Counted from the first letter of the stretch, positions 1,406 through 57,855 are shown. The stretch is 64,000 bases of DNA from Chiloscyllium plagiosum (GCF_004010195.1 NC_057756.1:4433936-4497935); one strand, 5' to 3'. The notes: generated by a model from the letters alone, not told the origin. Numbers and translations: made by a program.

Positions 1406-1699
1406 GCGAAAGAGGGTGTGTTTGTGAGGAACGTAGAGAGAGAGAGGGAGAGTCAAGGTGTGAAACTGGAGTCTCTCCGTCAGTGCCTGTGTAGCCTCCC
1501 AGGGGGTTTCCCCCCTGGAACTTTACCTGCTCTGTTTGTTAGGCTCCCTTCATCCCTCGCTCTGGCTTCCTTATCTCCACCCCATGTGTGGCATCACTCC
1601 TCTTCCACTGTCTCTCCTCCCTCGCCTTTCATTACCTCTATTTCCGTCATTGTGTTCTGTCTTTCATGTCTCCTTGCCCCTCTTTCCCGTCTCTCTCTC

Positions 1700-10855: not shown

Positions 10856-10882
10856 AGCTAAAACTACGTGAAAAAAACAAGG
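10856..10882 (+). CDS. Micro-exon, 27 nt, (E)LKLREKNK
   Basis: attctccaaacag|AGCTAAAACTACGTGAAAAAAACAAGG|gtaagt. Confidence 0.75.
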
Positions 10883-13800: not shown

Positions 13801-16800
13801 CGTTGCAAGTTTTTATTTCGTCTTAGCCATTCGTTTTTTTTTCACAGTTAAGGAATCAATTTAACCTCATCAATCTCAATCTTTTTTATGGTGTAATCTT
13901 GAAAATTTCTATGTCAACACATACATTTAATAGTTACTCGGCTTCGTCAATTTATTGGTTTGCATGAAAAATAATTGCTCCTAAATATTCATTTTGCATG
14001 TCCAAATTTAACAATCCATTTTATATTTCTTTCCAACTTGAATTTGATCATTTATCCCTGCTCTTTTCTGAATTTCTTTTCTTCTTTCTTCCTGAATTCT
14101 ACGATTACCTCAAAAGACAATAGACAATCGGTGCAGGTGTAGTCCATTCTGCCCTTCGATCCAACATCACCATTCATTATGATCATGGCTGATCATCCTC
14201 AATTAGTATCCTGTTCCTGCCTTATCCCCATAACCCTTGATTCCACTATCCTGAAGAGCTCTATCCAACTCTTTCTTGAAAGTATCCAGAGACTTGGCCT
14301 CGACAGCTTTCTGGGTCAGAGCATTCCATACACCCACCACTCTCTGGGTGAAGAGGTTTCTCCTCAACTTAGTGACGAACTTTTCCAAACTTGTAAGTTT
14401 ACTGCTTTTGAATCAATTCTGTCTGTATCTTTTCCTGCTAAACATTGGTTCCTAGATATCCTGTCGGGTATTTCCCCTTTACAAATTGTACATTTCATTT
14501 TTATAAAGAATCAAACAGTCATTCTTTATTTGAGAGACATTGACAATCTGCAGTAAGCAGTTTGTAAGTCACATAGCTTTCCACTGCGGACATTTTAAGA
14601 CATTTATTTATCAATATCCATGGGCAAATTTATTCATATGATCTTGTATGCAAGAATTTTTTTTCATACCGAAGGAAAATATGAGTCATGGTCTTCTTCA
14701 CATTTTGATAAAATACCCTTTTTCATGTAGATTATTAAGCAGCCATTTTTCTTGCAATGAGATCAAACGAAAATTACATTTTTTTTCTAGTTTTTGCATC
14801 AACATATTGATCCACGAAACCGTGTGCAAAAAGTATTGATTTTTTGTTTCTTTAATTCAATTAGTGTTCATTTTACTGTTTCAGTCTACATGCAGATTGA
14901 CATCTTTGATTGTTGCATTGCACAGCACATTTAATTGCCTGAGTCATAAAATTATTTTCGATATATACAACGATTTACTGTTTTCAAGTGATACATTATA
15001 AATTAGAGCATTTTTTATCACGACACTATTTGACAAAATAGGAGTCTGAATGTCAAGTGGTAATGTCTCCATTTTTGGATGACTCCAAGTCTGTGTGTGG
15101 TAAGCTTGTGATACAGTGAAGTAATGCCATCAAAAGAGAGAGCCATGTAAAAATTGCAAAGTTTACCAATGGTTCAGAAGTCCATCAAAAAGAAGGGAAG
15201 CATCTTTTTGACAGCGAGAAAACGCATCAAAACCATTCGTGTCATATTACTTTACTTTAGAGGTGACAGATCTCTCATTTTACATCCTCCCATCCCGGTG
15301 TTTTTATAATTTTATTTCATTCACGTGTGCATTAAATTTGTCATTGAATGCATTGATCATCACTGCCTTAATCACATCAGATTACAGCTAAATAGAATGA
15401 ATGTTAATCTGTTAAAAAGAAACACCAGAAACACAAAACAGCATTCTTGCATCACAACTGTAGTTATTGCTTGAACTTTTTGATATCTTTTCATGACTAA
15501 TGTCCAAAGACGTAATGGGAGTGGGTTCCTGTCGTCCTCAAGTTTTATTATCTCGTACTAATCTAAGAAGACTTCATTTAGGATTGTTTCCCGAAAGTTA
15601 GGAATCTTCATCGACATTCTACGCTACCTTAAAAAGAAGAAAAAATGTCTAAGAAACTCCAGGGCAATTGGTAGTCTATGCTGATTTCGCCCACTAATTC
15701 AAAACGTAACAAACCTCTATTATTTAACACATCTCATGACTATTTCCAGCACGTTATCAAGCAAACACTCAACGTGCCGGTTAGGTGATGCGTTTTGATA
15801 TGAAACCAAAATCACCTATTACTTGAAATGAGCCTGTTCAGGTACAGAAGTAAACAATGTGGATTTGCAAATGTACGAATTTTGAAAGGTTTCTCTATTT
15901 TATCAATTCTGTTACGATGGAAACAAGAAACCCGAAATTGAAAAGTGAAGGTGAGTTAGAACAACATTCATCAAATATTAGATTGAAAATTGATGAGTGC
16001 AGTTCTGATCATTGCAACGGACTTTGATGTAAGTGAAATAGTGTAGTGTTGGTTTACAATGATGGAAGCAGAAACGCCCAGTTTATACTTATCATGAAAT
16101 GATGAACACTTTTGAATAAAAATGGAAAGCAGCATCACTACAACTGTAACCTGTGCTTGTCGAGTTGAAAAAGACATAATTCTCTACCTATTCCCATGAG
16201 TTGTAAGATAAACACTAGCTATCGAGAAATAAATTGATTGGAACACCTTCTTCACCCAAACCATAATTAGATTTTTTATTATTATTACTGATTTTAGTAG
16301 AGCGTCCAACACCTTCAACCGTCAGAATTATGAGTTACTATGCATGACGATTTCATTGCTCATGTTCAAGTGTCAAAAACTGTCATGACTGGAACAAATG
16401 ACATAGGTTAGCTAATTATTTCTAAATACCTTCATTTCAATTCCGTAGGTGTTGATAAGAATGCACTGACATTTGTGCGAAGGGAATTGACACAGAATGA
16501 AACTGTATTTTTCCTCCTAAGGGACCCATTTGAATGTATGAAAAAAACCCTACTCTTTCCATGTTGAGTGCAATTAGGAATCAATATGCACTTTTAAACA
16601 TGCATTGGTATCTTTGTCATAATATGTGTCCTTTCACTACGTTTTCTATTATCATAAACTTCCCAATTATTACCAGTTTGCAGTGGTCAACAACTCATTT
16701 GATTCATAAAGCACAACGTATATTTATGTCGTGTCTCCCCAGAATATGAACAGTTGAAGGACAATTTTGAAGCTAAAGGTAATTCATTCACATTTTATAT

Positions 16801-19800
16801 CTTGGAGAATGTGAGAACTCCAGGTGCTGGAGATCAGAGTATAGTGCTGTAAAAGCACAGCAGGCCAGGCAACATGCGAGGAACAGGAGAACTGACATTT
16901 TGGGCAAAACCCTCCATTAGGAATGGGGCTTGAGAGATCTCATATCTAGCTTCAATATTTTCTTAAATCCAAGTTCGGGCTTTCATATAATTAATCAGTG
17001 TATTTTAGGTAATGATGTTAACAATGCGCTGGATTACATATTATAAGGGATGACATTCAGTTTTAAATTTACACAACGTGAAACGTGAAGTCCGTTTGAG
17101 TCTGAAGAAGCACAAATGTTTTCACTTAAATGGAATGGAGCTTAAAAATTAATAAATACAAGTCTATTGCGATTGATTAAGATGAGCAATCTAAAAATCA
17201 GTACATGTTTAGTTACTTCAACACGAAAGACTTTGCAATGTAAAGTTTTATGTGCATCTGTTTGATTAGTATGGATATGTAGTACAGTAGTATTACTGCT
17301 TCTTTAAGAATTAAACTTCCCTTCACGACAAACTAAAAGAAAGAAAGAGGTATCCAGGGCATGTTACACACTTTTGAGTAACATTAAACAGACAAAAAAA
17401 AAACCTCAGATGTGGATCTCCCCAGTAAGAAAAAAAGAGATTCAAGCATTTTAAGCAGATATTTAAGAACTTTTTTAGGCGAAGATGCCATAATAAAACT
17501 GCAATTTTAGCCATTGATCAGTAATTTAACTTACCAAAATTGAAAATTTTACAGCTTTAACAGTAGCTCAGAGGCTGGAAATATCCCACAAATTAACACT
17601 CTCTGATTTCTGGAATAAAGTCCATTATCAATAATTCAGAATGGTAAGCTATTCTGAAATTGTGTAATATTATACATCTTCCTGGATTATTACATTGTCA
17701 ATAATAAACAAGATGCTGAAAATATCTTGGGATAAATCTACTCAGACGTGCTATTGTACTTCTTGCAGCAGGACATCCTTGAAGTGTTGCCTTTTGTTTA
17801 AGAGAGAGAAACATTGCCGCTGCGCAAAACAACAGAAACAGAAATGTAAACTGCAATGGCATTACTGGATGAACTTCTACCCACGTACAAACAAGACCTG
17901 AGTTCACCGAAGTTCCCAATATGCTAAGATCGAACTGTATCTAAAAAAAATGGCCATGGCTGAAGCAAGGCACTTAATTTTATCCTAGCATTTGTGGGCC
18001 ACATCTTGAGCAGCTAAATGAAAGCTGTGATTTGTAGTTCTCTCTAACAGAGGCTCAATGGAAACAATACCTGACGCTCGGCAAGTCAAAGAAGCATTCA
18101 TTTAAAGGACATTTGCAAATACGAAAACGCACAATGGCATGATCACCCAAGTATCTTTTTCTTCCAATGCACATCTCGCAGCAGTACGATCTGTATTTTT
18201 TTCACAACACTCCCAATGTCAAATTTCCCTGCCTGCCTCAACACCTTGTTTGGATCTCAGTCTCGTCAACGTCCGAAGTTGAAGAAGGCAGTGTTCATCA
18301 TCTCAAGAAAAAATAGATAAATACTATCAATGTGTATTCATCAAAAATGGGGAGAACGAATACTAGTTAGAATACAGCAATACAGTTCTCATTTCTGATA
18401 TGCATGGCTCATTGAGAATAAGGAATACCTGTACAACGTAATAAGGTTGGCTAGGATTATTAAAAGCACATAGAGAAAATGTGACTTAGATTTAGAATAA
18501 ATGTTTTTAACCAGACTGGTGCGAATCAAATAGTCTTGAATTTGCCGAAGTATTCAGGAGCCCAGTTATCAACCTGAAAACTACAGATAATTAATTTAAA
18601 TAGAATGATACAAGATATGAATACATTCGTTCGTTTACAGGAATCACGGCACAGGAAGAAACGTTTAAATAATAAAAACATGCAAAGAAAATCAACCTGG
18701 CAAACTTAAGAATGTCCATGACATTGTTTCTATGAAGCTATTGTTATCTATGAATAATTAACATGATAAATATCACAAATCTCTATTAGACCAAGCATTA
18801 ACAAAGAAAGATAAAGGTAATATACTTAATATGATTCAGTTAGTCGTTAACAAAATATATTTTATTCAATATATGCTTTCAAAAAACATTTATGACATTG
18901 ATCAAAATGTAAGTGAAATGTCCAGCATTTGCTGCCCCTTTCGAAATGCTCTTCAATTAACTGTCTCTAAGTATGGATTAAGTGTAGGCTACCGATTGGT
19001 CTGTTTAAAGGAATGTATGATGCAATTACTATTTACAAGAAATGTTTGTTAAGGTTACAGTCATGATTACTGAGACAAGTTTTAGACTTCCACCAGCGTC
19101 CATGCTGAGATTTTACATTCGTCCAGAAGAATGTCATGCAGCCCTCTTGCCTGCTGGACCAGTAGCATTACCAATAAACCATAGAACAGTGTGGAAAAAA
19201 TCCATTCGCCCCATTTCTCCCACAGCATCGCTCTGAAGAGCGTGCTAACTAGTGTTATGGACTAGGCCAAACCACTCAAAGTGTTCTTAAGCAGGCAGCC
19301 CGGACCATAACTTTGCAATTTGTTTCGGTAAGTGCACAGTGAAAATTACCTAAACGAATTTAGATAAGTTGGTTACCAAATTTTAAAATAGGCAATCATG
19401 TATTCACAAATATACACAATTACACACAAAGAACAGATTTTTTAAAACCCTACAGAACTGAGTCTTCCCAAACGAGACATATTTATGCTGTTCTGAATAT
19501 ATGCAACAGTCCTAATGACCAAACCCTCTAACAAATAGTACAAATGAAACAAAGGCTTACAGGTCGAGGTTAGAAGAGCAGAAGGAGAGAGAGTCTGGCA
19601 GCCTGTTTCCATACAACTCACTGCTAAACTGGCTCTAACATATCTTAAGCTTTCAGAACTGACCACTGCCCTTTCATTATCGAGGTCACTTCTAAAACAT
19701 GACCACTTTGGACCGAAGTCTCATCTGTTTATGTAGAAACAAAAGGCGTCTCAAAATCCTCTTTCATCTCTGTACCAAACTAGCCCCTCAGAGCCGGGAG

Positions 19801-22800
19801 CTGGTTTATGACACCGCTGAAAAAAACACTAGCATCACAGTATCCTTGAGAAAAGGAACAGCTTTTAAAAATAAAGATCAGCTTTGTGACCCTAGAACGA
19901 CCCTGTCTGTGCCATCCTACAATTCCCGTGGCCAATCTACATTGCTGTAACATTCCTAGACACTCATAGCAATATTGCATTGCCAATGCACAGCTTTCGA
20001 TTGTGTCAGGAAACTGGAGCACTGGTAGAAAACCGAGGCACACACATAGACAACGTGCAAACTCCACAAAGACAGTCGCCCGAGGCTAGAAACGAGCAAG
20101 GGCTCCTAATACTGTAAAGTAACAGTGCCTACCACTGAGACACTGTGTCACCCAGATTGGTCCAAATTATTTCATTTGTTATACAAGACAATGGACTACT
20201 TGAGCTCTCTATTCAATGAAACGAATTATCTCCTGACTTGAAGTGGAGATTTTAGAGTTTCGTAACACATCACACAGATTTTGAATGTGCAGAAGAAACG
20301 TGATTACAATATGCTTGCAGTAGTCGGCAGCATCATGGAGATAGGAACGTAATATCTGATGCTGCTGGATGTTTGGTCTTAACTTCAAACTTGAGTGATG
20401 GACATGCATAAAAATTCGTTTACTACTTATCTAAGAATATGAGACTATGACGTTTAATGTTATGCAACTCTGATTAGAAAATACGTATTTATGGTACAAG
20501 TATTGGAGCGAACATTCGGGAGCATACCCGTTGATTATAGTTATGGAAGCATTTATAAGATTTTAGAATAACAATTTGATTACAATATCATATTCGAGTT
20601 TTCTCAGGAGATAGTTTTCCAACAACGCCCTAATGCACATTGTCTCTTACTTACGAAGGCCTACCTGTCATTAGATATTGACTTATATATAACTAAATTA
20701 TTTCGATGTCATTGCTTTATAATTCTGCTTTGATTCATGTATGAGACCTCCTTTTCTTCCAACACATTAACTTAAGAGAAATATAGTCTATCATGTGTAT
20801 TCACATATATATTGTAGAAATGATTTTTAAAAACTTCGAAAATTTCCTATTGAATGCGCTAAAACATTATAATTTCCAAACCTATGAATAGAATTGGACT
20901 TGTCTCAAGTTCGTTTCTATATTTTTTTTATTAGGTGGTTAACAAAATTGAATTGAATTCGGGAATATATATCTGGGACATTCCCATCACTTGACAAAAA
21001 TTGTTTTACTTATACTTTTCCTTTTGGTGTTTGCTTTGTATTCACAAAATGTCTGTGATATAATCATTACTGTACTGATATTCTCTTTTAGTACAGTAAC
21101 CAACAAATTGGGAATTTAATCTACAAATTCTTTATTTTAAATTGCTGGTCCAGAATTAGAGAAAATGCGAAAAAGTCAAATTAAATGTGGTAAGTGTCAG
21201 AATACTATGTTCTTCAAATAACATTTACTGTCTCATATATTCGTCGAACATGAAAAGATTGCCAATTTAAGACAACTTTTCTAAGATGGTGCAAGACTCG
21301 ACACAATACTATCAATTGTAATAATGGTGAGACCAAGGAATTTGCTCATTGATTACCAATATAGAATGCAATTATCATTCGTAAATTGTGTTTCTGCACT
21401 TACATCGTTTGATTTGACAGTCATGATGTTTATAAAATATCAAATTACACGTTTTAATATATTGCAGAGGAAAATTTGACAGCAGGCAGAAACGGTAGGT
21501 AAATCTATGCTTTCAAGAATGCATATGTACATTTCATTTTGTAACTGAAACTTGTCCCAGTTCAGCTAACATACAGAGCCACAGAACACAGAGGGAGAAC
21601 ATCCTGTGTCTCACGTACATATCGGATTTGAATTGAATTGAATTTATTTTGACATGTACTGATGCACAGTGAAAACCTTTATCTTATGAGCAATACAGGC
21701 AGATCTCATAGTTAAATAGCATAGAAAAATAAGTAATAAATAAACAACGGCAAAAACAAAAACACAAGGAGAGGCGAATGTGAAGAGTTTGTGAGTCCAT
21801 TCAGTATTCAAGCAACAGTAGGATAGAAACCCTTTTAAAACCGGCTGGGACGTGTGTTCTGGCTTATGTAATTTCTGCCTGATGGCAAACGGTGTAGAAA
21901 AAAAAAACATTGCCAGGTGTGATGGATCTTTGAGAAAGCTGGCAGCCTTTTCTTGACAGCCGGCACAGTAGATGAATTCTACAGATGGGAGGTTGGTCTT
22001 TGTGATTGTCGGGGCTGAATTCACCATCCTCTGTAAACGTCTCCGATCTTGAATGGAACAGTTGCCATACCATGTAATGAGGAGAAAATGAGGTCTGCAG
22101 ATGCTGGAGATCAGAGCTGAAAATGTGTTGATGGAACAACGCAGCAGGTCAGGCAGCATCCAGGGAACAGGAGAATCGACGTTTCGGGCATAAGCCCTGA
22201 AGAAGGGCTTATGCCCGAAACGTCGATTCTCCTGTTCCCTGGATGCTGCCTGACCTGCTGCGTTGTTCCAGCAACACATTTTCAGCTCATACCATGTAAT
22301 GATACAACCAGACATAATTCTCTCGATAGCTCGCCAATAAAAGTTGGCAAGCATAATTGTCATCATGCCAAATTTCCTCAGCTGCCTGAGGAAGAAGAGA
22401 CATGGTTGGGCCGTTGTAACTAGTGCATCCACATGAACCAGTGCAACTTATTTTTCTTGGGTCAATGATTTAACTCCATTTCCGTATCGCCCCACTAATA
22501 CATTTTTGCCCACTTATAACTCACTTCCATTTCTGAGTTCTTTTGTCTGCAACTACATTACCTTGTAATAAGCAAGAACTATGTACCCCATAATTTGCCC
22601 CCTGTATGTGATTCTGTTTGCTATCCACTGACAAGTTCGCTCCCCTGGCTCTGCTCTTTCCGATGTGTTGAATTATCATCTAATGTGCACATTGTTTACT
22701 TCAAATTTACATGCATCCAGAAATTTTTGAGGCAGTTCTCTGCTTTAAAAATTACTGATGTCTTTTACTTGAAAGTCAATCTGCGATATTGGGAAAAATA

Positions 22801-28800: not shown

Positions 28801-31800
28801 CTGCAACAGTAATATACTCACCGATGTCAATGGCATTTAAATGGGCAATAGACATACATATGGATCATAATGGAATGATGTAGGTTAATTGGACATCAAA
28901 TTAATTTCACGGGCAGGCGCAAAATTGAGGACAAAGAACCTGTACTGCGTTGCAACCTTCTATGTTCTATGTTCTATAATCTTAAATCTGCGCCACGTAT
29001 TTGTGAACCCATCCAAGATTTCAATATGACATCAATACACTTTGAGCAATTTCCTCTGTTAATCCCGCTAAGCATCTGATATTGTCCAATCAATTAAACT
29101 GTCAGTTTTCTAAATTCCAATGTTTAGAGTCAAAAAGTGTTTAGTGCTTGCACACAACACAATCCTTTCTTACTGGTGATTAGCCTAGAAAATCTTCTGG
29201 TCACTGCCAACAATTATATTATGTCTGTAAACTGCTCACAGTACTCCAGATATTATGTTTGTGTGGTTATGCACTTTGGTAGCATCCATAAAGGCCGAGT
29301 CAATTTGTAAAATGAAGAAAGGTATCTAAAATCTGAAGAACAAAGCGACCGAGGAGTCTCATTTCACAATTGTCTTCAACTGCATACGAAGAATAAGTTG
29401 ATATTTAGGTAGAGAAAACAAATTTAGCTTAGATTTCAAGAGGACTAAAGTAGCTGGATCTGTATTCGATGGAGTTTAGATCTCAAAGAATGCTGAGCGA
29501 TTTTGAGGGAGTTGATGTAGAAAGGTGTTTCCATTACTAGGAGAGACAATGACATGAAGGCACAGACTCAGAGAGAAAAGACAAAACATTAGAACTGAGA
29601 TGAGAAGGAATTTCTTCAGCCCGTAGCAGGAAGCTCTGTTCAACATATTGCTGCAGAAGGTTATGGGGATAAAATAATTTTATTTTATTTAAAGCACAGG
29701 CATTTAGGTTCTTATTTGATAATGTCCTCGGGGCTGCAAAGAGAAGGCGAGAACGTTTATTTGAGAAACCCATCAGACACAATCGAATGGTGAAGCAGAC
29801 ACAATAGGACAAATGGCATAATTCTGGTTATATATAATTTGGTCTTCAATGTTTTGGTCAGTAAGATTTCCCGAATATTATATTCCAACAACATTGTCAA
29901 GAGGAACAACATTCATTAATCTTCATGATTACTATGTGACAGATTTCTGTGATTCTTCAACAAGTACGCCCATGTTCATTTGTAGTGCAGATTTCAACAA
30001 CATTTTATCTTCATTTCACTAAAAATCTATTCTTGTGTTCGCCTTCCAAAATAAACGACCTCACAGTTTTTCACCTGATACTCCAATTGTGATATTCCCA
30101 CTGACTTGGTAAACCAGTATCTCTCTGTAAACTTTGCGATTCTCAATCTTCCATTCCATTTTTTTCTGTTAATGGAGATCTGGCAATTATCTAGACTTGA
30201 ATACCTCTGGACGTCCTCCCCGTGCCTCCTGATGTGTGGTACATCATTGCAGTAGTGAATCTCGAGTCCCACTGATTGTGAGGGTTTCTGGGCTGTTTTG
30301 TGGACTGTTCGGACCTGCCAAGTTCATATTTCAATTTTATTGATTGGAATTGCTTGTGAAACTGTCCAATACCAAATGGTTTTACCATATATAGCTAGCA
30401 ATTGTTGAATGTCTTCTGTATGTTCTTGTATGTTCCTACTCGCTTCTATGTTCTTTTCCATAATTTAGCGAATCGATTGGTCTTCGCTGAAATGCCTTTC
30501 TGTTCATTTCTTGTAACTGCAGCGCGAACTTGGATGTGGTAACCTACGTAGCAAAGATAACGAGTTCCTACATTGTCAACTCTCTAGCTTGCAGTCAACT
30601 CGTTGTAGTTTTCTGTCAAATTTCAATTGCCAAATATTCAGCATTATCCCACTTGGTGAAATGATGATTTCTTATGGAATTCAACTGTACTGATTAATTT
30701 TGGTAAGAAATGCATCTGTAACGATTTTCATGCCATAATTGAGATGTTTCATTACAGTAATGCTGGNNNNNNNNNNNNNNNNNNNNNNNNNNNNNNNNNN
30801 NNNNNNNNNNNNNNNNNNNNNNNNNNNNNNNNNNNNNNNNNNNNNNNNNNNNNNNNNNNNNNNNNNNNNNNNNNNNNNNNNNNNNNNNNNNNNNNNNNNN
30901 NNNNNNNNNNNNNNNNNNNNNNNNNNNNNNNNNNNNNNNNNNNNNNNNNNNNNNNNNNNNNNNNNNNNNNNNNNNNNNNNNNNNNNNNNNNNNNNNNNNN
31001 NNNNNNNNNNNNNNNNNNNNNNNNNNNNNNNNNNNNNNNNNNNNNNNNNNNNNNNNNNNNNNNNNNNNNNNNNNNNNNNNNNNNNNNNNNNNNNNNNNNN
31101 NNNNNNNNNNNNNNNNNNNNNNNNNNNNNNNNNNNNNNNNNNNNNNNNNNNNNNNNNNNNNNNNNNNNNNNNNNNNNNNNNNNNNNNNNNNNNNNNNNNN
31201 NNNNNNNNNNNNNNNNNNNNNNNNNNNNNNNNNNNNNNNNNNNNNNNNNNNNNNNNNNNNNNNNNNAAGAGGGAAATCTCAATTCCTGGAGAACACGACA
31301 AGGAAACTTACCGTCATGAAGTAACAGCTACATGGAAATTAAGGAAAAGTTCTAAATATTATTTTTAAGGAGACAACTTTACTAAAGTTAATTTGACATG
31401 AATGGCTGATCTTCACATTGGTAAAAATAATTGAGGTCCACCTTATACCGAAAATCAAATCTCAAAAGGTCTGTGGAAAGATTTTACAAACTCAGAATCT
31501 TCTTCTTCTCTGGAGCACAATTCTGAAATGTACATGAGTGTCGAATCAGATGAGAAATATTTCTGTCAGCTATTTCGTACATCGTGTACATCTGAGGAAC
31601 AATTGCCTCTTTTTGTTTCCTTTCATTTTGACAGATTTCAGCCAACGATTTTTCACGTACAGGCAGATGATTTTACATTTTCTGTGATATTTCCCATACA
31701 TCAGAACTGGAGAAACTAAGGAAGAAGAGTCAAGATTGTGGTGAGCAATGGAAAACAAATCCATGTCATTTGTGGTTTGAAATTATGAATAGCATTGCAC

Positions 31801-34800
31801 ATATTTGAGTTGATTAAGCACAAACCATTTTTGACAAACTTCAAGTGTATGGTGCAAAGTAATGTTGGAATCAATTCAAAACTGTAATTATTCGCATGTG
31901 AAAATTTGTGCTCTCAAAAACAACATCTTATCTGGTGTCAAATGTGATTCTTCGTGTTAACCATTGAGACCAAGACGAATTTATTCACCGTAAATTCTGA
32001 AGGTGTCAATGTGAAATTATTTTAGCACTGACATTGATGCATCTGATATTGTACGTATAATTTCACGAAAAACATATGTTCTCAGGAAGAAATGTCAAAG
32101 AACACATTTTCCTCTGAATTAGTAGTCCAGAACAATATCCAACATAAAATGTCAGCTTCTTGGCATATAACATTTTTTTCTATAATTATTGTTTTCTTTG
32201 TTATTCATTTAGCTTATCGTGGAAAATAGCTTTTCTCCTTCTCTGTCCGCCCCCACTTCATTCCTCACCACTCCCCACATCACTGCAAATTCCCATCAGG
32301 AAAGCGCAATTATAGTCAATCATACAGTAATAGAATCAGAGAGATGTACAGCATGGAAACAGACCCGTCTGTCCAACCCATCCATGCCGACCAGGTATCC
32401 CAACCAAGTCTAGTCATTTCGAAATAGGTTTTGGAAGTTAACTGACAAATAAGATATTAAGTAGCATGATACAAATAATGTTGGAAAAATAAAACATCGT
32501 CAAATTGATTAATTGGTCAACAGATCAGACTATATGTAAGCAAATGAAATGAAAATGTCTCAATGCAATAGATCTGCTTTCGTCACGCTTTGCACCTTTC
32601 CTCAAAATATACCATGAGAATATTTTTTGGTTCCATTGATTATCTGGGATTAGCATTTAAACTCCAGTCTGTTGATTTACATCTTAACATCGTATTTACA
32701 ATATTGTTTCAATCTCTCATGGCTATATCTTATCTTGCACAAATATCCGTTCATCCACCACCCCTATGCTTCTCGATTGATATTTGCTGCAGATTACACA
32801 TGATTAATCCGACATACTGCTAATCCACGTTTCAGGAAATTGAAACAGAAATCAAATGAAGTAATAAAGGGAATGATAATCATCATCATCATCATCATTA
32901 CCATTACAACATTGGCCATACTTAATCCTCTGCAGAAGCATTGACACTATTTGTAGTAGAATTGTGTGTTCAAGCGTGCAGATCCTGAATGCCGTAATTC
33001 CTTTAAACAAATCTGGCTCCCTGTCGATATTTTAATAGATGAAGTTGTTTTGCATGTCGGTAGGTTTTTGATTCATCATTTAGATTCGTATATATAGTGT
33101 TTTGAATTATATTTAATAATCGCTCCGGTGTTTTCCAAAAAGAATATTGATAATATTATCTAAAATAAATATTACATTCCTCCTAGAACTAAAATTAAGT
33201 TCGGAAAGAAAAGGTAAATAGATACAAGAAGTAAATCTGACTTTTTTAACCTTGTGTTTTCCTCATCAGAATTGGCTTCTGGATCACATGTCAATGAAAA
33301 CATTGATATCTGTTTCGAAATCAAATTTTTGCTGTCTGACTATGTTTGACTATACATAGGTTGCATTCATTATTAATTTTCATTAAGTGCGAAATGTGAA
33401 GAACAGTTGACATTTTTGAGCATGTTGTGTGACAATATGTTCTTCAGGATAACAAGTGGAAGAGATACTGATTCCAGTTGACCCTTTAAAGATGGAATGG
33501 TCTGCTTCCTTTGCAAAATTGGCAAGTTATCCTCTCGTTCCACTAGAATGCACGAATTCCTCATCATAAAACATTGAAGGAATAACTAAAACTTGTGAAT
33601 ACGCAAAATTGATATTTCACTGGTGGTAGCTGCAGGAATGGAGAGCTATGTGAGACACAATTTCTCATGGTGTTTTTCCCACAGATTTGAACAACGTCAC
33701 AGGGAGGTGTTTGAGGCTGTTGACGCCAGCATTTCAGACAGATAGGTCAAATCCTTTGGATAATGGAGAGCAGATTTAAAACGAAGATGAACTCAAACGA
33801 CTTCTTTCAAAGAATGATGAATCCTTGGACGCCATTACTCTACAGCTTCTGGGGTAGAGGCATATTGAGTACAATTAGAAGGAGATAGACAAATGTTTAA
33901 TTATTAACAAGCTGAGGAGTAAAGAGGACGGGCAGGAAATTGGTTTTGAAACGATGCAATCTGCCATTAAAATATGTAATGGTGGAACAGGGTTAAGGGG
34001 CAGAATTGTCTACTTTTGCTTCGAGTTATTCTGTTCTCGTATTCCCAAATGTACAGCAGTAAGTAGTAAAGTGTTTCATGAAAAACTGCAATCATTTGTG
34101 TGGACGACACTCACAGTTAAGCTTTTGACCCATCGATTGAAAAAGAGAGACACGTCATTGCAGGTTGAGATGTTGTGGAGCGTTCACGAGAAATTTCTGT
34201 TGCCTTGGCTCCCACGCAGCTGCTGCCCTTGATATTTTCTGCAATATGAACTGCACTTTTGGCTTTCTGACAGCATATTGCTGCTACTTTCATCTGGGCA
34301 AGTCGAGGGTAAATCATAATATTTCTGATTTCTGCCGTGCAGATCGGGCAGGCATTGTGTAATCCAAACGCAAGACATGCCGTAGTCACCAGAAATTATG
34401 AACCAATTGCATTTCAATTATTGACCACTGATATTTTGCTAACGTATAAATGGTTTGGGTGGGACTGCTCTCAACAGTGGAAGTACCAATTAACGACAAA
34501 GAATGATACTATATTGAAACATGTTGAAGAGAGTCGTTGCCTGATATTTGCAGAACAATATTATGTTAACTTCAGTGCGAATCAAATATGTTGTCCAAAT
34601 TCAGACAAATAAAAATTGTACAACCTCAGCTGGTATTGCATCATCTTTGGGAAGAAATAGAGATAGACTGAACAATAGTCATAGCAGATTTAAGACTTTC
34701 ATTCGTCTTGACTCCATTCGGTCAACAGGGTCTGAAATTATTCTTTACCTCCTGCATACTTGAATGCAAAGGAAGTGACCACCATCAGCCTTTTGGAGTT

Positions 34801-40800: not shown

Positions 40801-43800
40801 TAAATAACTATATTGTAAAAAGTAATAATTAGTTCAAACAGGTGACAGAGGTGATTTATGTCAACAATTCAGGCCTCATTATGTGAAGAAAGAGTTGTGT
40901 CACACTGTCCCTGAACATGTTCAGGTGTGAATGAATAGGATGCGTATGGTGAATGGGAAGTTGCTGCGACAAAAAAAAAAGAAATGGAAACTGTCAAACT
41001 GATGTGAAATATTGGAAAAATCACAAACTTAGTCTGGAATAGATTGGAGGGGAAATATATTAGAGTGAAGTTAAGAAGAATTATGTCCTCTGCGGCAGAT
41101 ACAAACAAAAAAAGGTCCACCAGCACAGTCCCCTCCGTGGATTTTGGAAAAAGGTACAGTTAGCATGTCTGTCAGGTTGGGAAGATGCAGAGGTAAGTAG
41201 AAAAATACATTATGAAAGCTGAAGATGCAAACAAATGAAATTGGCAGTAATATTCTCACAGTACTGTGGCTTATACTTGTTAATATCATGACTTTGTTAA
41301 CTATTCCTTCTTTCAGAGCTAAAGAATGTCACTGAAGCCAATGGTAAGGAGGCACATTACTTTCTCGTTTTCAGAAACTGTGCACGCTAAGCATTGATCC
41401 TTTATTCAGTAAACTATTAACTCGAATTCGTAGTCGTCCTTTCACTTTTAAATTTGAATGTCTTTCAGTCGTGTTAATCTCAAAATAGTTGATTATAATA
41501 TAAATCCGGCATTTCATGAGCCATGAGGGGACGAGAGCATCGAAGCAATTGAAGGCCCGGTGGATCACTGAGGTGCATTAAAAAGTAATTTACGTTTGAT
41601 TATATTTTTAGTGTTAATTTACTGCATAGCTTTTTTTTTATTAATTTAGTGCTAAAAAGTGAAAGCGACTGCGTTATGAAATAAGGATGATAGCAACATT
41701 TATTACACTTTGCTTTGATATTCAAGTTACTAATTGTAAGTGCTGTTCACTGTGTTTGTTGACAAGTGAAGGTGTACCAGAGCGAATCTGGGATCAGGGC
41801 AGAAAGAAAGGTTTGGGCTGCCTCTATCGGAAAAATATGCATATTCCATCTTTTCCAGATGTCGATGTGGGATGATTTGAACCTGCCAAACATTACGTAA
41901 ATGAGCCATAGATAGCTGATAAGCTTGTAGCTGCGAATGAAAGACGAGAAACAGCGGGAACCCCAAAATTAATTAATTGCCCAATTCTGTGTATTATAAT
42001 ACAACATCGATTGTTACATGATGTGGCTTTTAAACATGCCTTGGAGGGTTTACTGATGAGAACCAGTCACTTGATGTCTCCGACAAAGAGAAGAAATTTG
42101 AGGAACAGAAAGCCCTGTGAATCAACAAGATAGTCTCAGTGAAGTATATGGAGAGGGATCACTCAATCCCTCCACAGTCTCACCCCAACTCGCAATATCC
42201 ATATTTTGCATTTATGTGTTGGTCTGAGTCTGATTGTATACAGTCTGTGTCAGTCTGCATGTCTGTTGGCGGGGAGGGATTTATTAGAAGGTAGTAGAAG
42301 GGCTTATGCCTGAAACGTCGATTCTCGTACTCATCGATTGTTGCCTGATCTGCTGTGCCTTTCCAAACCTCACTCTCGACTCTGATCTCCTGCATCTGCA
42401 GTCCTCATTTTATCCCCAAGAAAATTACCTAGCCAAGTTATATAATTGTTGATTTAGAATTGATTTCTATCAAGTTCCTAGCAATTTGTATAATGGACAG
42501 GAATGAATCTGTGATTTTGTTTGTCAAACAGGGTCAAATGAGTTGTAAATAATGGAATATTGTTTTCTTGTATGTATTTAATTGTTTGGCGATCTCTGGA
42601 ATAATGTGATTGCAGTTCCAGTACAGTATTCCATTGTGGCATGACGAAGTCTGGGGAATTTAAAGCGATTGATTTGGAGCAGAGACAATGAGGATGGGGA
42701 AGTGGGATCAGTACATGGTACAAATAAATAGAAATGCGATGTCTTCTACTACAGTCTAGGTACAACATTCAGAATAGCACAGGATTTGTTGCAGGTGGCA
42801 AAACTGTTTCTGACAGTCTCAAGAGAATCTCGAAAGACTAAGCTTCATTGCCGCATAAACTGAATGGAACATTGTCTGACAAAGCTAAGAAGGGATGTTC
42901 ATTGATTTAAAAGAATCACAGTTGCTAAAATAGGTGATAAATATTGAATAGATAAACATTGGAGTCAGATGTGGTAATCAAATGATGTTCAGTTAAGGCG
43001 AAATTAGCTTGACAACAGAAATGGAATTAAAATGAACCTCGTTCTGCAGTATGCAGAGAATGATAAAGTACAAACACTTTGAGAATAGTGACAGTTAAGA
43101 ATATGGAGGTCCAATTAAAAAGACAGGAAATGGAAGTAATGCTATGGAATGTGAAACTTAGTTTAAATGATTCCATTGAAATTAAATGCAATGTCCAGTT
43201 TAAGGCCTCATTTGAGGGACCTGTTGAAGAATGTAAAATTCCCGTATTGAATATGGTGCCACGGTGGGGACCAATGGTTTAGTAATGTGAAAAGAAAGAA
43301 CTAATGTCTAATAGTCATGAGCTAATTCTAAAAGATGAAACTTTGTTTTTTTTTCTTTCTGTAACCTCAAAAACTCAAAGGAAATTAAACACTAATGGGG
43401 TAATAAAAGTAATCCAAGAAGCCAGAAGAAAGAATGAATAGTTGAATTGACCTACAGTCTCCTGATTTTAGATTAGAAAATACTGAAATGAAAGATGAAA
43501 CAGGAGACAGGGATAATTGAACAGAATAAATGTAGGACAAAGTTGCTTACAATGCTGAAAGTTGTCATGGAACTCCATCTGACATTTTGGAACTTGTGAA
43601 AAAATACATTCATAATGAGAAGGCGATGCAAAAGTTTGTATCTGCCTTTTTTATCTTCTACCTCTACGCCAGAGATAAACACTACTGCGCTAAGCTGCTT
43701 TCTTAGATCATTAGATCGGCCATTTTGATTCATTTATTTCTGTGTTATTCACATACATAAGCGATTCTGAAGTAATGAGGTTATACCGAATGACCATATC

Positions 43801-52668: not shown

Positions 52669-52764
<96 letters not shown>

Positions 52765-55700: not shown

Positions 55701-57855
55701 TTAACATTCATTTCTAATGTACACACTTTTGCTGACTTAACATAAAATATTTTCTTTCATGCTATTTCAGAGAAACAGATTCATAACTTACAACGTGGTA
55801 AGACTCATAACATTGCTCTATTGAAAGATGAATTTTACTTCAGCAAGTTACTCAAATTCTTACTTACAAAGACTGTTCAAAATTATAAGGTATCAAAGAC
55901 TGCTTGAAAATTTGAAACAAAAATGAACGGCATTGGACAAGTAGCTTTTTAAATTAAAGTATACCAATTCAGAAGTCACATTAAAAGCAAGACATGAAAT
56001 TATTACAGAGGGATAGAAAAGCACTTAAATATGAACAGCTAAAGTCGCAAAGAAAAGAAAATGCTTTGAAATAGTTATATTGAACGAGATTAAGTAGTAT
56101 AAAGATTGTTAGTGAAGAATAAGCTTGTGCAGAAGATTGATTAGCTACCAACATAAAACTACAAAGAACTAAGTTCTTATTTGAAAAAGACCTAAAATGT
56201 TCAGAAACTCCAAAGAAGGAAAAATGAAGAATACCTGGCAGCTTTCATTACGGAAAACAATCTAAGTTATGAAGGTATGTCAATGATAACTGTATGAAAA
56301 CGTTTAATTGTGTGATATTAATTTCCTGAAGTGTTTCAGTTTATTGTGTGGTGACATGGAGGTGGGCATGAAATAACCACGCTGCTTTTAAAATAACGCT
56401 CAACCATTTTTTGTCAGTCTGAAAAGGGGGATTTCGATCAATAGGTGTTTATATGCAATAACTTGAAACCAGTTGGATTACTTCCTGTGTTGTTTAGGTG
56501 TTTGTAAACACGGTCAGCTGAAAAATAAACGACAAAACTTAAACATTTTACGTCTTCAACAAATGGTAATAAAAGCCTTTTTCAAGAGAGATTGTCATGA
56601 CCAAACTCCTTGGTTGTTTTTTTTTCATGAAGCAAAATAGTAAATTGAGATAAAGGATAGTATTTGTGTGAATTTCACGTAAAGAAATGCAAAGTTTTCA
56701 GTTTCAAAAAAGTTAATCAAATATCATTTGTGCAAGCATTGAAAATAACCTTTACTGCATGTAACATATCGAAGAGTGTGGTGCTTGCAAAGCACAGCTG
56801 GTCTCGCAGCACATGAGGAGTAGGAGAGTCGACTTTTTAGTCATAAACGCTTCATCACGATGCACGAAACGTCGTTTCTTCTGCTCCTGGGATGCTGTCT
56901 GACCGGATGTGCTCTCTAGCACGACACTGTATGAGTCTGATCTCCAGCATCTGCAGTCCTAAAGTAATATCTGTTCATTATAAGATCGAGTCAGAACTGA
57001 TGGAAATTGGTGGACAATAAGTGACTGTCTACAAAACCAAAATAAAAGAACTATTTGAGAGACAGCATTCACGAAACGTCAATTCAACTTAGAAACAAAT
57101 GCATAGTTAAGTTTTACTGCCTCCACTATAACAATTAAGTGGTAATATTATAGCAATCTGAAAATGTTCCCTATAAAATCAGTAAAGTTACTTCAACACC
57201 AGATGTCAAATTTTGAACCTGCACTAGACAGCAGCCACGTAGCAGCAACAGCAGTTAGAAATTCCCTAAAAAGCTACAAGGTTGACTTCGAATTGCATCC
57301 GGGATACTTCATTTGGCAGAACAAAAAAAGGAGGAGCTTTCTGCCAAATACCGTCTCGTCGTGTCAGTCTCAGCAACCATTTTACTCTGCCTTGAACAAA
57401 AGTAAACCAAAAATGCAGGTTCTTCCTTTTTTCTTTCTAAGGCAGAAATTAACAAACAGGAGACACCAGAATAACTAACCATGCACGATACAAATGAAAG
57501 CAAAATGAAATGATCCTCGCTAAATTGCAGCTGCATTGTTAATTGGCAAGTTAAATAAAGTTTTAAATGAGAAAAAAAAAACTCTTATTTAGTGTTAGCG
57601 TGAATACCAGTTGTGAGAAATAGTATGCATCTGTTTAAGAGAAACTAAGAAAAGTGTTAATTCTTACATTTTTTCTTGTGAAGCTAGACTGTGATAATTT
57701 TCAATGGTCAGTCTATTCAACTTGCAAAATAACAAGCTATCACTGACAATAACGAGATACTGACCGTGTTTATTTGTTATTGCTGCATGGTCTTAATTGT
57801 GATTTTTATCTTGATTTAGAAACAGAAACTTTGAAAAAGAAATTGCAGACATCAG
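10856..57855 (+). CDS. Partial multi-micro-exon gene encoding a heptad coiled-coil segment (butyrophilin/BG-like tail architecture; identity unresolved)
   Basis: 11 phase-1 symmetric micro-exons with canonical AG/GT splice to ELKLREKNK-EYEQLKDNFEAK-DQALTKKDK-ELEKMRKSQIKC-EENLTAGRN-ELEKLRKKSQDC-DEVVLHV-ELKLSSERK-ELKNVTEAN-EKQIHNLQR-ETETLKKKLQTS (327 nt, no stop). No start or stop exon was found in the window. Confidence 0.7.
11971..12665 (-). mobile_element. CR1-type (HER1-like) LINE 3' fragment
   Basis: Minus-strand remnants such as 'CRRLRGNLIQFY' and 'ESVQNIFTSMSP'; CATAGAG-type tail at the left end. Confidence 0.8.
14115..14372 (-). mobile_element. CR1-type LINE 3' end
   Basis: ORF 14203-14388 contains RRNLFTQRVVGVWNAL...AVEA.SL.TFKKELD, the conserved CR1 ORF2 C-terminus. 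Confidence 0.9.
16743..16778 (+). CDS. Micro-exon, 36 nt, (E)YEQLKDNFEAK
   Basis: gtgtctccccag|AATATGAACAGTTGAAGGACAATTTTGAAGCTAAAG|gtaatt. Confidence 0.75.
16804..16924 (-). mobile_element. Penelope-type terminal-repeat fragment
   Basis: Diverged copy of the ...GCTGGAGATCAGAG...GCAGGTCAGGCAGCATC... repeat also at 22081, 42297, 46012 and 56771. Confidence 0.7.
18790..18816 (+). CDS. Micro-exon, 27 nt, (D)QALTKKDK
   Basis: atctctattag|ACCAAGCATTAACAAAGAAAGATAAAG|gtaata. Confidence 0.7.
19180..20153 (-). mobile_element. HE1-like tRNA-derived SINE, split by a solo LTR
   Basis: 19950-20153 reads on the minus strand GGGTGACACAGTGTCTCAGTGGTAGGCACTG...TGTGGAGTTTGCACGTT (tRNA head plus V-SINE core). 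The CR1-like tail continues at 19180-19252. Confidence 0.75.
19253..19891 (-). mobile_element. Solo LTR (Gypsy/Gmr1-like) with 4-bp TSD CTAG
   Basis: TGTTATG...TGTGAC termini; CTAG at 19249-19252 and 19892-19895; starts like the proviral LTRs at 47852 and 53263. Confidence 0.75.
21154..21189 (+). CDS. Micro-exon, 36 nt, (E)LEKMRKSQIKC
   Basis: ttgctggtccag|AATTAGAGAAAATGCGAAAAAGTCAAATTAAATGTG|gtaagt; paralogous to 31705-31740. Confidence 0.8.
21468..21494 (+). CDS. Micro-exon, 27 nt, (E)ENLTAGRN
   Basis: ttttaatatattgcag|AGGAAAATTTGACAGCAGGCAGAAACG|gtaggt. Confidence 0.7.
22081..22287. mobile_element. Palindromic Penelope-type insertion with 15-bp TSD
   Basis: 85-bp inverted arms at 22114-22198 and 22204-22288; TSD CATACCATGTAATGA at 22066-22080 and 22288-22302. 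Confidence 0.85.
22197..22221 (+). ncRNA. Minimal hammerhead ribozyme core (Penelope-associated)
   Basis: CTGAAGA-A-GGGC-TTAT-GCCC-GAAAC matches CUGANGA / stem II / GAAA. Confidence 0.6.
23165..23482. repeat. 159-bp tandem duplication
   Basis: TAAGCGTCGCTGAAATGTG...CCTCATGTGAGG at 23165-23323 and again at 23324-23482. Confidence 0.9.
23241..24485 (-). mobile_element. Younger CR1 (HER1-like) LINE, RT C-terminal region and 3' UTR
   Basis: FINDLDEE..ISTFADDTKVGG...WQMEFN..KCEVMHFG; LERVQRRFTRML; FFTQRVVRAWN. Confidence 0.95.
26775..28976 (+). mobile_element. CR1 LINE ORF2 remnant (~2.2 kb)
   Basis: VDVVYTDFSKMFDKVPH; QGSVLGPLLFVIFINDL; FGDDTK; (TTCTATG)n tail. Confidence 0.95.
26884..27163 (-). 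mobile_element. 5'-truncated poly(A)-tailed retroposon end (L1/Tx1-like 3' UTR), 14-bp TSD
   Basis: T-run at 26884; TSD CCCGAAGGCCTTCT at 26870-26883 and 27164-27177; minus-strand AATAAA near 27006. Confidence 0.7.
29260..29845 (+). mobile_element. Old CR1/L2 LINE 3' fragment
   Basis: GGTTATGCACTTTGGTAG...GATGAGAAGGAATTTCTTC motifs, heavily decayed. Confidence 0.65.
30767..31266. other. Assembly gap (500 N, probably a nominal scaffold join)
   Basis: Run of N inside the inferred micro-exon gene. Confidence 1.
31705..31740 (+). CDS. Micro-exon, 36 nt, (E)LEKLRKKSQDC
   Basis: tttcccatacatcag|AACTGGAGAAACTAAGGAAGAAGAGTCAAGATTGTG|gtgagc. Confidence 0.8.
32325..32415 (-). mobile_element. Short CR1 3' tail
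   Basis: GATGTACAGCATGGAAACAGACCC...CCATGCCGACCAG. Confidence 0.7.
33039..33059 (+). CDS. Micro-exon, 21 nt, (D)EVVLHV
   Basis: gatattttaatag|ATGAAGTTGTTTTGCATGTCG|gtaggt; one heptad long. Confidence 0.55.
33187..33213 (+). CDS. Micro-exon, 27 nt, (E)LKLSSERK
   Basis: acattcctcctag|AACTAAAATTAAGTTCGGAAAGAAAAG|gtaaat; paralogous to 10856-10882 (17/27 nt identical by eye). Confidence 0.75.
33745..34035 (+). mobile_element. Old CR1/L2 LINE 3' end
   Basis: AATGGTGGAACAGGGTTAAGGGGCAGAAT terminal motif with a degenerate C-terminal coding remnant. Confidence 0.6.
36100..38860 (+). mobile_element. Near-complete decayed CR1 ORF2 (APE endonuclease plus RT) and 3' UTR
   Basis: DVVAFTEAWL at ~36143; LKDNPKAIYGYI; MDFSKAIDNV; VLQGSVLG; many stops and frameshifts. 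Confidence 0.9.
39602..40241 (+). mobile_element. Solo LTR related to the 47852-53879 provirus, opposite orientation
   Basis: CTCCTTTAACAAGGTTACGTTGTCCTT matches the reverse complement of the LTR end at ~53840-53870; ends ...ACAACA. Confidence 0.7.
41317..41343 (+). CDS. Micro-exon, 27 nt, (E)LKNVTEAN
   Basis: ctattccttctttcag|AGCTAAAGAATGTCACTGAAGCCAATG|gtaagg. Confidence 0.75.
42297..42415 (+). mobile_element. Penelope-type terminal-repeat fragment
   Basis: GAAGGGCTTATGCCTGAAACGTCGATTCTC...CATCTGCAGTCCTCA. Confidence 0.75.
44591..44861. mobile_element. Palindromic Penelope-type insertion, second family, with hammerhead core
   Basis: Imperfect inverted repeat at 44623-44862; CTGATGA-A-GGAGC-GTC-GCTCC-GAAA at 44776-44800; TSD TATTTTCGG(G/T)TGA at 44578-44590 and 44862-44874. 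Confidence 0.8.
46012..46132 (-). mobile_element. Penelope-type terminal-repeat fragment
   Basis: GAGAAAGTGAGGTCTGCAGATGCTGGAGATC...GACGTTTCGGGCACAGGCCCTTC. Confidence 0.8.
47852..53879 (-). mobile_element. Decayed full-length Gmr1-like Gypsy LTR retrotransposon
   Basis: LTRs at 53263-53879 and 47852-48467; gag knuckle CFHCNKVGHVKSQ at ~51903-51944; protease ILRDTGSSQSLM at ~51622-51658; integrase (FYWPELHKDV, PF..I..DCIGP) at 50757-50990; RT (WNSPIVMV, LCVDY.KVN) at ~49620-49700; GFYRKFVP at ~49120; polypurine tract AAGGGGGTAG next to 48467. Confidence 0.92.
52670..52775. repeat. (TC)n/(CA)n microsatellite inside gag
   Basis: ~100-bp dinucleotide run. Confidence 0.95.
54075..55330 (+). mobile_element. 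RTE-clade LINE remnant
   Basis: Frameshifted RT motifs ..CGP..GAQQT/MIF..QEKC.E....FFDLTKASDTV; C-terminal LHKILQISWED and WTGHI. Confidence 0.8.
55771..55797 (+). CDS. Micro-exon, 27 nt, (E)KQIHNLQR
   Basis: ttttctttcatgctatttcag|AGAAACAGATTCATAACTTACAACGTG|gtaaga. Confidence 0.75.
56771..56960. mobile_element. Degenerate palindromic Penelope-type repeat
   Basis: Inverted halves of the same family as 22081-22287, centred near 56860. Confidence 0.7.
57820..57855 (+). CDS. Micro-exon, 36 nt, (E)TETLKKKLQTS
   Basis: tttttatcttgatttag|AAACAGAAACTTTGAAAAAGAAATTGCAGACATCAG|gttaaa. The donor is weak, but the peptide aligns with ELEKLRKKSQDC. Confidence 0.6.

Follow-up and report, generated by a model that had tools for sequence, protein, structure and literature searches.

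A probable coiled-coil–B30.2 gene built from dispersed phase-1 micro-exons in the shark Chiloscyllium plagiosum

Coiled coils assembled from very short exons are known from butyrophilins and from chicken BG proteins. In butyrophilins, very short 'heptad' exons lie between the transmembrane part and the B30.2 domain, and isoforms from which one heptad is missing are known (PMC6790196). All jawed vertebrates have butyrophilins, whose heptad number varies among species (PMC12841164). The tails of BG proteins form a long coiled coil encoded by 21- or sometimes 24-nucleotide (nt) exons, 13–36 per gene, in which the first and last residues are shared with the neighbouring exons; the genes constitute a multigene family that expands and contracts (PMC4046983). 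Here, these systems are compared with a locus of the shark Chiloscyllium plagiosum. The stretch under study comprises 64,000 nt (NC_057756.1:4433936-4497935; hereafter the window). An initial annotation, made from this sequence alone, had read eleven short segments, spread over 47 kb, as phase-1 micro-exons that together encode a heptad coiled coil and could escape gene finders, and had assigned them to the tail or stalk of a butyrophilin/BG-like receptor or to an unannotated lineage-specific gene. The first of these propositions holds. Very probably, the segments are genuine coding micro-exons and come from the middle part of a plus-strand gene of very large size that combines a coiled coil with a B30.2 domain and belongs to a family of cartilaginous fishes.

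The eleven segments of the window

All eleven segments were found at the starts given by the initial annotation (Table 1), each preceded by AG, followed by GT, opening with A and closing with G. They total 327 nt. Joined in phase 1, as proposed, they encode 109 residues with no stop, and the remaining two frames are stop-rich. The segments had also been described as free of repeats, and none of the eleven lies within a repeat over 354 kb (the window plus 290 kb around it), the only exception being exon 10856, which recurs in an assembly duplicate.

Taken by themselves, splice-like borders and open frames do not exceed chance expectation. Under loose criteria (AG-N(21/27/36)-GT, a pyrimidine tract and a phase-1 frame free of stops), the window contains 16 plus-strand and 16 minus-strand candidates, and over the 354 kb the phase-1 frame is open in 258 of 426 plus-strand candidates and in 220 of 351 on the minus strand. 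This near equality of the strands is the point that speaks for chance AG...GT segments, or pieces of dispersed repeats, as the source of the observation. The comparison with the minus strand and with shuffled DNA ends differently for the full signature, defined as A...G ends, an open phase-1 frame and a K/R/E/D/Q content of at least 45%. It is present in 38 plus-strand vs 3 minus-strand candidates over the 354 kb, whereas 40 dinucleotide shuffles average 1.7 and never exceed 5; inside the window the counts are 8 and 0. Since 30 of the 38 candidates lie outside the window, they independently replicate a rule that was derived from the window itself. The null proposed at the outset is thus at chance level for the loose criteria and far exceeded by the full signature. 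This enrichment, the absence of the exons from repeats, the concentration of 14 of 16 near-exact exon-pattern matches on one strand of one contig and the in-phase B30.2 exon that follows the array (both described below) leave a chance or repeat origin with practically no probability; signature enrichment, pattern clustering and the in-phase B30.2 exon have effectively refuted it already.

Three of the claimed exons (21468, 33039 and 41317) fail the composition threshold of the signature, referred to as the charge filter, and are supported by the heptad register instead. The hydrophobic periodicity noticed earlier is confirmed: the period of the 109 residues is strongest at 3.5, and none of 2000 shuffles reaches the same power. 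Deletion of any register-shifting internal exon reduces the heptad power from 2.11 to values between 0.63 and 1.54. The 21-nt exon 33039 is little informed by this test because its seven residues leave the register unshifted, and it is the least certain of the eleven.

The larger array and its terminal B30.2 exon

The initial annotation understated the extent of the array and did not recognize its unit. The gene is located on the plus strand of contig C47 from about 4,292,622 to 4,578,022, so that 285,401 bases separate the first exon seen from the stop, and about 2.0 kb of coding sequence are distributed over a span of at least 285 kb. By a composite score, 44 plus-strand candidates exceed a level passed by only two on the minus strand; they extend 141 kb upstream and 135 kb downstream of the window. 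The visible part of the gene, taken as the working set, has at least 49 phase-1 micro-exons, namely 25 of 27 nt, 20 of 36 nt, two of 21 nt and one each of 30 and 33 nt. All 49 end with G and 44 begin with A; AG/GT borders and open frames are found throughout, exons of 27 and 36 nt alternate in 29 of the 48 neighbouring pairs, and the median intron measures 3.1 kb.

Exons of the two major classes align without gaps, splice sites included, with the consensus E-L-x-x-C-x-x-x-L-K-D-L for the 36-nt class and E-E-K-L-x-x-K-E-K for the 27-nt class. The unit of the array is not 21 nt and corresponds to a pair of 36- and 27-nt exons that encodes 21 residues, i.e. three heptads. The joined rod of 497 residues has its top hydrophobic period at 3.5, with a power of 2.85 vs a maximum of 1.56 in 2000 shuffles. 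Paralogous exons resemble each other only over the exon and a few splice-site bases (∼80% identity over 33–48 nt), and their flanks cannot be aligned. Mean pairwise identity reaches 0.46–0.51 in exons, vs ∼0.30 in intron flanks and a random expectation of 0.26. At codon positions 1, 2 and 3, identity is 0.42, 0.59 and 0.38 in the 36-nt class and 0.54, 0.63 and 0.37 in the 27-nt class. The order, second above first above third, is the pattern expected of protein-coding sequence. One pair of neighbouring 36-nt exons, 132 and 126 kb upstream of the window, is exceptional in being 89% identical over 436 nt, flanks included, and by this likeness appears to be a recent tandem duplication of the exon unit.

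A composition scan of the 354 kb for larger K/E-rich exons returned simple repeats only, and a Pfam scan of 131 plus-strand open frames downstream of the window, among which the B30.2 exon was not present as a whole, returned transposon-type matches only. The end of the gene was reached by a genome search with the Pfam SPRY domain (150 of 293 candidates scored), which gave a single match on C47, at 4577660-4577983 on the plus strand, with an expectation value (E) of 1.1e-14. The match lies 1.8 kb past the last micro-exon and 86 kb downstream of the window. It belongs to a single 524-nt terminal exon with an open frame of 177 residues (SPRY, 4.9e-18) and a stop at its end. The best acceptor of this exon (ttttgcag/TC) is in phase 1; therefore, the micro-exon array reads straight into B30.2. 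An SPRY exon is one of the flanking exons that the initial annotation had pointed to. PRY was not detected by Pfam in the exon, nor in the five related proteins scanned (see below). Among solved structures, the exon matches the B30.2 domains of TRIM58 (1.1e-19), TRIM21 (1.6e-18) and BTN3A1 (8.5e-17), and that of pyrin within the range of E 1e-19 to 1e-16.

If transcribed and spliced as the exon borders suggest, the gene would produce a coiled-coil rod of ∼500 or more residues with a C-terminal B30.2 ligand-binding domain that may act as a sensor, and the rod may be a dimeric or higher-order heptad assembly that presents this domain. Since all exons are of phase 1-1 with a terminal G, the duplication, loss or skipping of exon pairs leaves the reading frame intact. 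Changes made in pairs would also keep the heptad register, and the length of the rod would shift in steps of three heptads. The recurrent cysteine occupies a core position of the heptad and, in an extracellular protein, could link the chains to each other.

Relatives, paralogues and other features of the locus

A first, word-based protein search gave only four distant matches. The exhaustive HMMER search with the B30.2 exon returned best single-domain matches of 41–48% identity, from cartilaginous fishes only (Table 1). As the best B30.2 identity is just 48%, the gene's own product appears to be absent from the protein collection. In a maximum likelihood tree of 30 B30.2 rows, the gene falls into a chondrichthyan clade of nine rows (eight others) that is supported at 100/100 and has a stem 1.35 long; Ig (immunoglobulin)-bearing, RING-bearing and pyrin rows intermingle outside it, in a sampling of outgroups limited to the best matches to the same B30.2 exon. 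The topology places the B30.2 exon within this clade and apart from the B30.2 domains of BTN, TRIM and pyrin. The clade is seen here only in cartilaginous fishes, which suits the lineage-specific gene envisaged as one of the two options in the initial annotation. The relatives carry misleading automatic names and are unstudied. Full-text literature searches, whose coverage excludes most subscription journals, gave no description of the family or of an array of 36+27-nt exon pairs.

Homology extends beyond the B30.2 domain. A script-joined model of the gene is 38% identical to the skate protein XP_055510696 over 293 residues, of which ∼115 are encoded by micro-exons upstream of B30.2. With the elephant-shark protein XP_042192744, the rod matches at E 2e-11 and the B30.2 domain at E 7e-44, and the C-terminal ending is also shared. 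The coiled coil of this protein, ∼1450 residues long and full of E-L-x-x-C-x-x-x-L, aligns to the upstream and window exons, i.e. to model residues 2–353; its first 317 residues have no match in the C. plagiosum genome. Isoforms of the ray, catshark and elephant-shark relatives differ by exact cassettes of nine or six residues within the coiled coil, in the elephant shark immediately upstream of B30.2, as expected from the skipping of symmetric exons of 27 or 18 nt. In two clade members, the protein begins with a hydrophobic stretch of 13–15 residues followed by basic residues, which may serve either as a signal peptide or to anchor the protein in a membrane.

The skate protein is also an argument for a more restricted view, in which only a 3′ core is used, which starts roughly with an exon 6.8 kb past the window, ends with B30.2 and can be aligned to the entire skate protein, and everything upstream, including the eleven window exons, consists of relics or rare cassettes left by an expansion of exon pairs. 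With its 295 residues it is collinear with the last ∼115 micro-exon residues and B30.2 only. Furthermore, the window exons match the class consensus less well than the upstream exons do, some donors are weak and RNA support for the window exons is nil. The state of the upstream exons argues the other way: AG/GT borders, open frames and the terminal G are kept in all exons of the set, their conservation tracks codon position, the heptad register is maintained across the eleven window exons, and the long elephant-shark coiled coil with its E-L-x-x-C motif aligns to upstream and window exons alike. The restricted view is therefore given little weight, and a gene that uses the whole array remains preferred.

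Some points weigh against this preference. RNA support is lacking in this species, and the inclusion of any given exon in mRNA is unproven. Reads mapped on window positions 16500–33500 gave no depth in exon or unique-intron bins and no joints at exon borders, with coverage of repeats only; the mapped data (a single-cell poly(A) run, ∼2% of it read, a small contig set guessed to be RNA and one DNA run) are uninformative on expression. Several donors are weak, e.g. GTTAAA at 57820. The 109 window residues give only one marginal match (E 0.001) among the fetched proteins, so that the homology signal stems from the B30.2 exon and from the array at large. The gene is seen only from its first visible exon, and its 5′ end is unread. 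The set of 49 exons was picked by criteria learned from the claimed exons and surely includes some false positives and omits true exons; errors are expected because 27/36 alternation is found in just 29 of 48 neighbouring pairs. Finally, the micro-exon build of the relatives' coiled coils is deduced from isoform differences only.

The gene has paralogues on the same contig. A pattern for the 27-nt class, written in International Union of Pure and Applied Chemistry (IUPAC) code, has 67 matches in the genome, 29 of them on C47, a contig of 10.7 Mb that represents 0.3% of the genome. With at most one mismatch, 14 of 16 matches are on C47, and all 14 are on one strand; an exon pattern allowing three mismatches is dominated by background (668 matches vs 599 for the control). 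The matches on C47 form three clusters: 15 at 0.65–0.97 Mb (plus strand), five at 1.04–1.85 Mb (minus strand) and nine at the present locus. The last number includes an unexplained outlier at C47:3,974,703 (plus strand), which could mean that the gene is much longer or that there is a fourth copy. For the 36-nt class, 12 of 32 matches are on the plus strand of C47, several of them 0.5–1.4 kb upstream of a match of the 27-nt class. The top three matches in the genome to the elephant-shark B30.2 domain are all on C47, at 4.578 Mb (plus), 0.995 Mb (plus) and 1.297 Mb (minus), and each is found at the 3′ end of a strand-matched cluster of exon patterns. The three B30.2 frames are intact, with pairwise identities of 59%, 43% and 42%.

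It is tempting to go further and to see in the three genes of C47 sensors that are specific to cartilaginous fishes and independent of both BTN and TRIM: rods of >70 nm, secreted or leader-anchored, with a cysteine ladder and a divergent B30.2 head. This proposal is doubtful in its entirety. In this picture, the core cysteine, present once per 21-residue unit, could form a ladder of inter-chain disulfides, and the number of 36+27-nt pairs would set the length of the rod, possibly varying between alleles, paralogues and splice forms. If an independent sensor family of this kind exists, few micro-exon arrays as large as this one would be on record for vertebrate genes.

The window contains a few other features (Table 1). 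Candidate 62765 is the sole additional one above the splice and composition thresholds; it was not listed in the initial annotation and sits between two 36-nt exons, the expected place of a 27-nt exon. Exon 21468 starts 278 nt past exon 21154, and exon 33039 precedes exon 33187 by 127 nt. DNA contigs from one sequencing run cover the regions of exons 18790 (18779-19279, two differences) and 31705 (31626-32213, no difference). Repeats include a 19-bp satellite at 1-1406 (∼74 copies, with more of the same satellite upstream of the window), a C/T-rich satellite of ∼40 bp at 2301-9478 (∼180 copies, strongly strand-skewed) and a 159-bp unit present twice at 23165-23485 with 95% identity. Positions 9474-14375, including exon 10856, which has an identical twin there, recur 15.3–10.4 kb upstream of the window as a 4.9-kb duplicate of 99.96% identity, which directly precedes a 5.2-kb gap of Ns; satellites and more runs of N lie between the copies. 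The duplicate is probably an assembly artefact, and exon 10856 should therefore be counted once. At 26706-27272, single-cell poly(A) reads pile up on one strand to a depth of 107, with poly-T loose ends. This is attributed to a transcribed, abundant intronic repeat and not to the gene, because the depth of its words in DNA is near one million.

Table 1. Micro-exons and other features of the window (window positions), paralogous arrays on contig C47 and related proteins. Power, heptad power of the joined segments (2.11 when complete) after removal of the exon.
Feature	Position or accession	Strand or species	Remarks
27-nt phase-1 micro-exon (27-nt class)	10856..10882	+	AG/A...G/GTAAGT; passes charge filter
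36-nt phase-1 micro-exon (36-nt class)	16743..16778	+	AG/A...G/GTAATT; passes filter; power 1.54
27-nt phase-1 micro-exon	18790..18816	+	Passes filter; power 1.32
36-nt phase-1 micro-exon	21154..21189	+	Donor GTAAGT; power 0.63, biggest drop of all
27-nt phase-1 micro-exon, weaker composition	21468..21494	+	Good splice sites; fails filter; power 1.13
36-nt phase-1 micro-exon	31705..31740	+	Passes filter; power 0.98
21-nt phase-1 micro-exon (one heptad)	33039..33059	+	AG/A...G/GTAGGT; fails filter; power 1.90
27-nt phase-1 micro-exon	33187..33213	+	Passes filter; power 0.97
27-nt phase-1 micro-exon, weaker composition	41317..41343	+	Acceptor score 6.2, donor GTAAGG; fails filter; power 1.17
27-nt phase-1 micro-exon	55771..55797	+	Strong splice sites; passes filter; power 1.33
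36-nt phase-1 micro-exon, weak donor	57820..57855	+	Donor GTTAAA; passes filter; matches 36-nt class alignment
Candidate 12th micro-exon, 27 nt	62765..62791	+	Donor GTAAGA; last base C, not G
Intronic satellite block with N gaps	1..9478		In long intron upstream of exon 10856
Paralogous array	C47:638,644-995,036	+	Intact B30.2, 59% identical to that of this gene
Paralogous array	C47:1,296,629-1,845,854	-	Intact B30.2, 42% identical to that of this gene
Relative, 'nuclear-pore anchor-like'	XP_042192744.1	Callorhinchus milii (elephant shark)	1697 residues
Relative, 'TRIM69-like'	XP_055510696.1	Leucoraja erinacea (skate)	295 residues
Relatives, 'TRIM39-like'	XP_038668997.1, XP_038672306.1	Scyliorhinus canicula (catshark)	
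Relative, 'zinc-binding protein A33-like'	XP_069775384.1	Narcine bancroftii (electric ray)	
Further relative, 'TRIM58'		Elephant shark	
Further relative, 'A33-like'		Basking shark	

Comparison with butyrophilin, BG and TRIM proteins

The assignment to a butyrophilin/BG-like receptor, put forward in the initial annotation, survives in part. It would make the array the cytoplasmic tail of a canonical receptor, with exons for a signal, for IgV (IgC being optional) and for a transmembrane segment further upstream. The tail plan fits, with phase-1 micro-exons followed by a single phase-1 B30.2 exon, as in the tails of butyrophilins (PMC6790196, PMC4046983). Near matches of the B30.2 exon are named ERMAP-like and BTN1A1-like, Ig domains were found in eight of 27 next-best single-B30.2 matches scanned (RING or TRIM_CC in three), and the short hydrophobic segment and basic residues that open two clade members would suit a receptor. 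A V-only, BG-like 5′ end stays compatible with a V-set search that scored 150 of 1319 candidates and is uninformative for this locus. The IgC part of the assignment does not fit. A genome search with PF22705 (butyrophilin-type IgC), in which all 96 candidates were scored, gave 65 matches at E≤1, none of them on C47 and most of the strong ones on another contig, C37; this negative is limited by the N gaps of the contig and by the unread 5′ end. No Ig or transmembrane exon was found in the array as read, the first coding exon lying beyond it. In addition, Pfam detected SPRY only in the five clade members scanned, with no Ig, RING, B-box, TRIM_CC or PRY, and a long branch with 100/100 support separates their B30.2 clade from the mixed BTN, TRIM and pyrin rows. 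A canonical receptor of this type is thus considered distinctly unlikely. The gene is butyrophilin/BG-like in its tail architecture, and its identity as a butyrophilin is not established. The Ig test failed as far as it was applicable, and the gene is filed with the chondrichthyan coiled-coil–B30.2 clade.

A linkage with the major histocompatibility complex (MHC) was considered and rejected, since it is C37, and not C47, that carries the exons for MHC class I and butyrophilin IgC; in the MHC class I search, with all 67 candidates scored, none of the 50 matches was on C47. MHC class I, butyrophilin-type IgC and most of the strongest SPRY and B-box matches cluster on C37, which looks like an MHC-linked BTN/TRIM region apart from the present locus. 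A triadin- or TSBP1-like reading was likewise rejected, as heptad leucines and a B30.2 end do not suit these proteins.

The names of the relatives (TRIM39-like, TRIM69-like, TRIM58 and A33-like, all assigned automatically) and the top solved-structure matches, the B30.2 domains of TRIM58 and TRIM21, point to a TRIM-type gene with a RING, a B-box, a coiled coil and a B30.2, in which the coiled coil was enlarged by duplication of micro-exons. The B30.2 domains of BTN3A1 and pyrin score nearly as well as those of TRIM proteins, however, and none of the five clade members has a RING, B-box or TRIM_CC domain detectable by Pfam scans that do find TRIM_CC in true TRIM rows. A genome search with the B-box PF00643 gave no match on C47 among 150 scored of 312 candidates, which is weak evidence with half of them unscored. 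Altogether, a TRIM-type gene is very unlikely, and membership in the chondrichthyan coiled-coil–B30.2 family is retained.

Several consequences follow if the gene is what it appears to be. Gene finders and scans for open reading frames miss genes made almost wholly of 27- and 36-nt exons, and the locus is well suited to testing annotation methods that take micro-exons into account in large shark genomes. The combination of a phase-1 micro-exon tail with B30.2, which butyrophilins and, in part, chicken BG genes also show, would exist in a much expanded form in cartilaginous fishes, with a different exon unit and, to date, without a detected Ig exon. The finding is relevant to the kinship of the B30.2 immune-type families (BTN, TRIM and pyrin) and to the duplication of exon pairs as a means of tuning the length of a rod.

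Compared with the described systems, the locus combines familiar parts in its own way. Butyrophilins such as BTN1A1 and BTN3A1 share with it short symmetric exons that precede a C-terminal B30.2 domain encoded by one exon; they possess IgV and IgC domains, a transmembrane segment and few heptad exons, whereas the present gene has at least 49 micro-exons, mostly of 27 and 36 nt, and its B30.2 domain belongs to a separate clade. Chicken BG has a similarly long coiled-coil tail made from many tiny exons, with V-like Ig and transmembrane exons, no B30.2 and one heptad per exon; the shark gene differs from it by a three-heptad unit split into 12+9 residues, the B30.2 end and introns in the kilobase range. 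Class IV TRIM proteins (TRIM21, TRIM58 and TRIM5) also place a coiled coil before B30.2, preceded by the RING, B-box and TRIM_CC domains not detected in the clade members. The predicted giant PRY/SPRY proteins of salmonids, annotated as 'putative leucine-rich repeat-containing protein DDB_G0290503' and up to ∼2000 residues long, are similar in layout, with a long coiled coil, a C-terminal B30.2 domain, no RING or Ig and many isoforms, and a trout example opens with a signal-peptide-like segment. They differ by a B30.2 identity of ∼30%, a detected PRY and another repeat pattern. The predicted 'A33 protein' of Amia calva (632 residues) combines a transmembrane-like segment in its interior with a neck of long, repetitive coiled coil and a PRY-SPRY at the C-terminus, a layout that resembles a type II receptor in which B30.2 replaces the lectin domain. 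Closest of all are the members of the chondrichthyan clade, in which an alignable coiled coil, of ∼100 to ∼1450 residues, likewise stands directly before B30.2; the 36+27-nt pairs, the 285-kb span and the cluster of three genes are features seen so far only in C. plagiosum.

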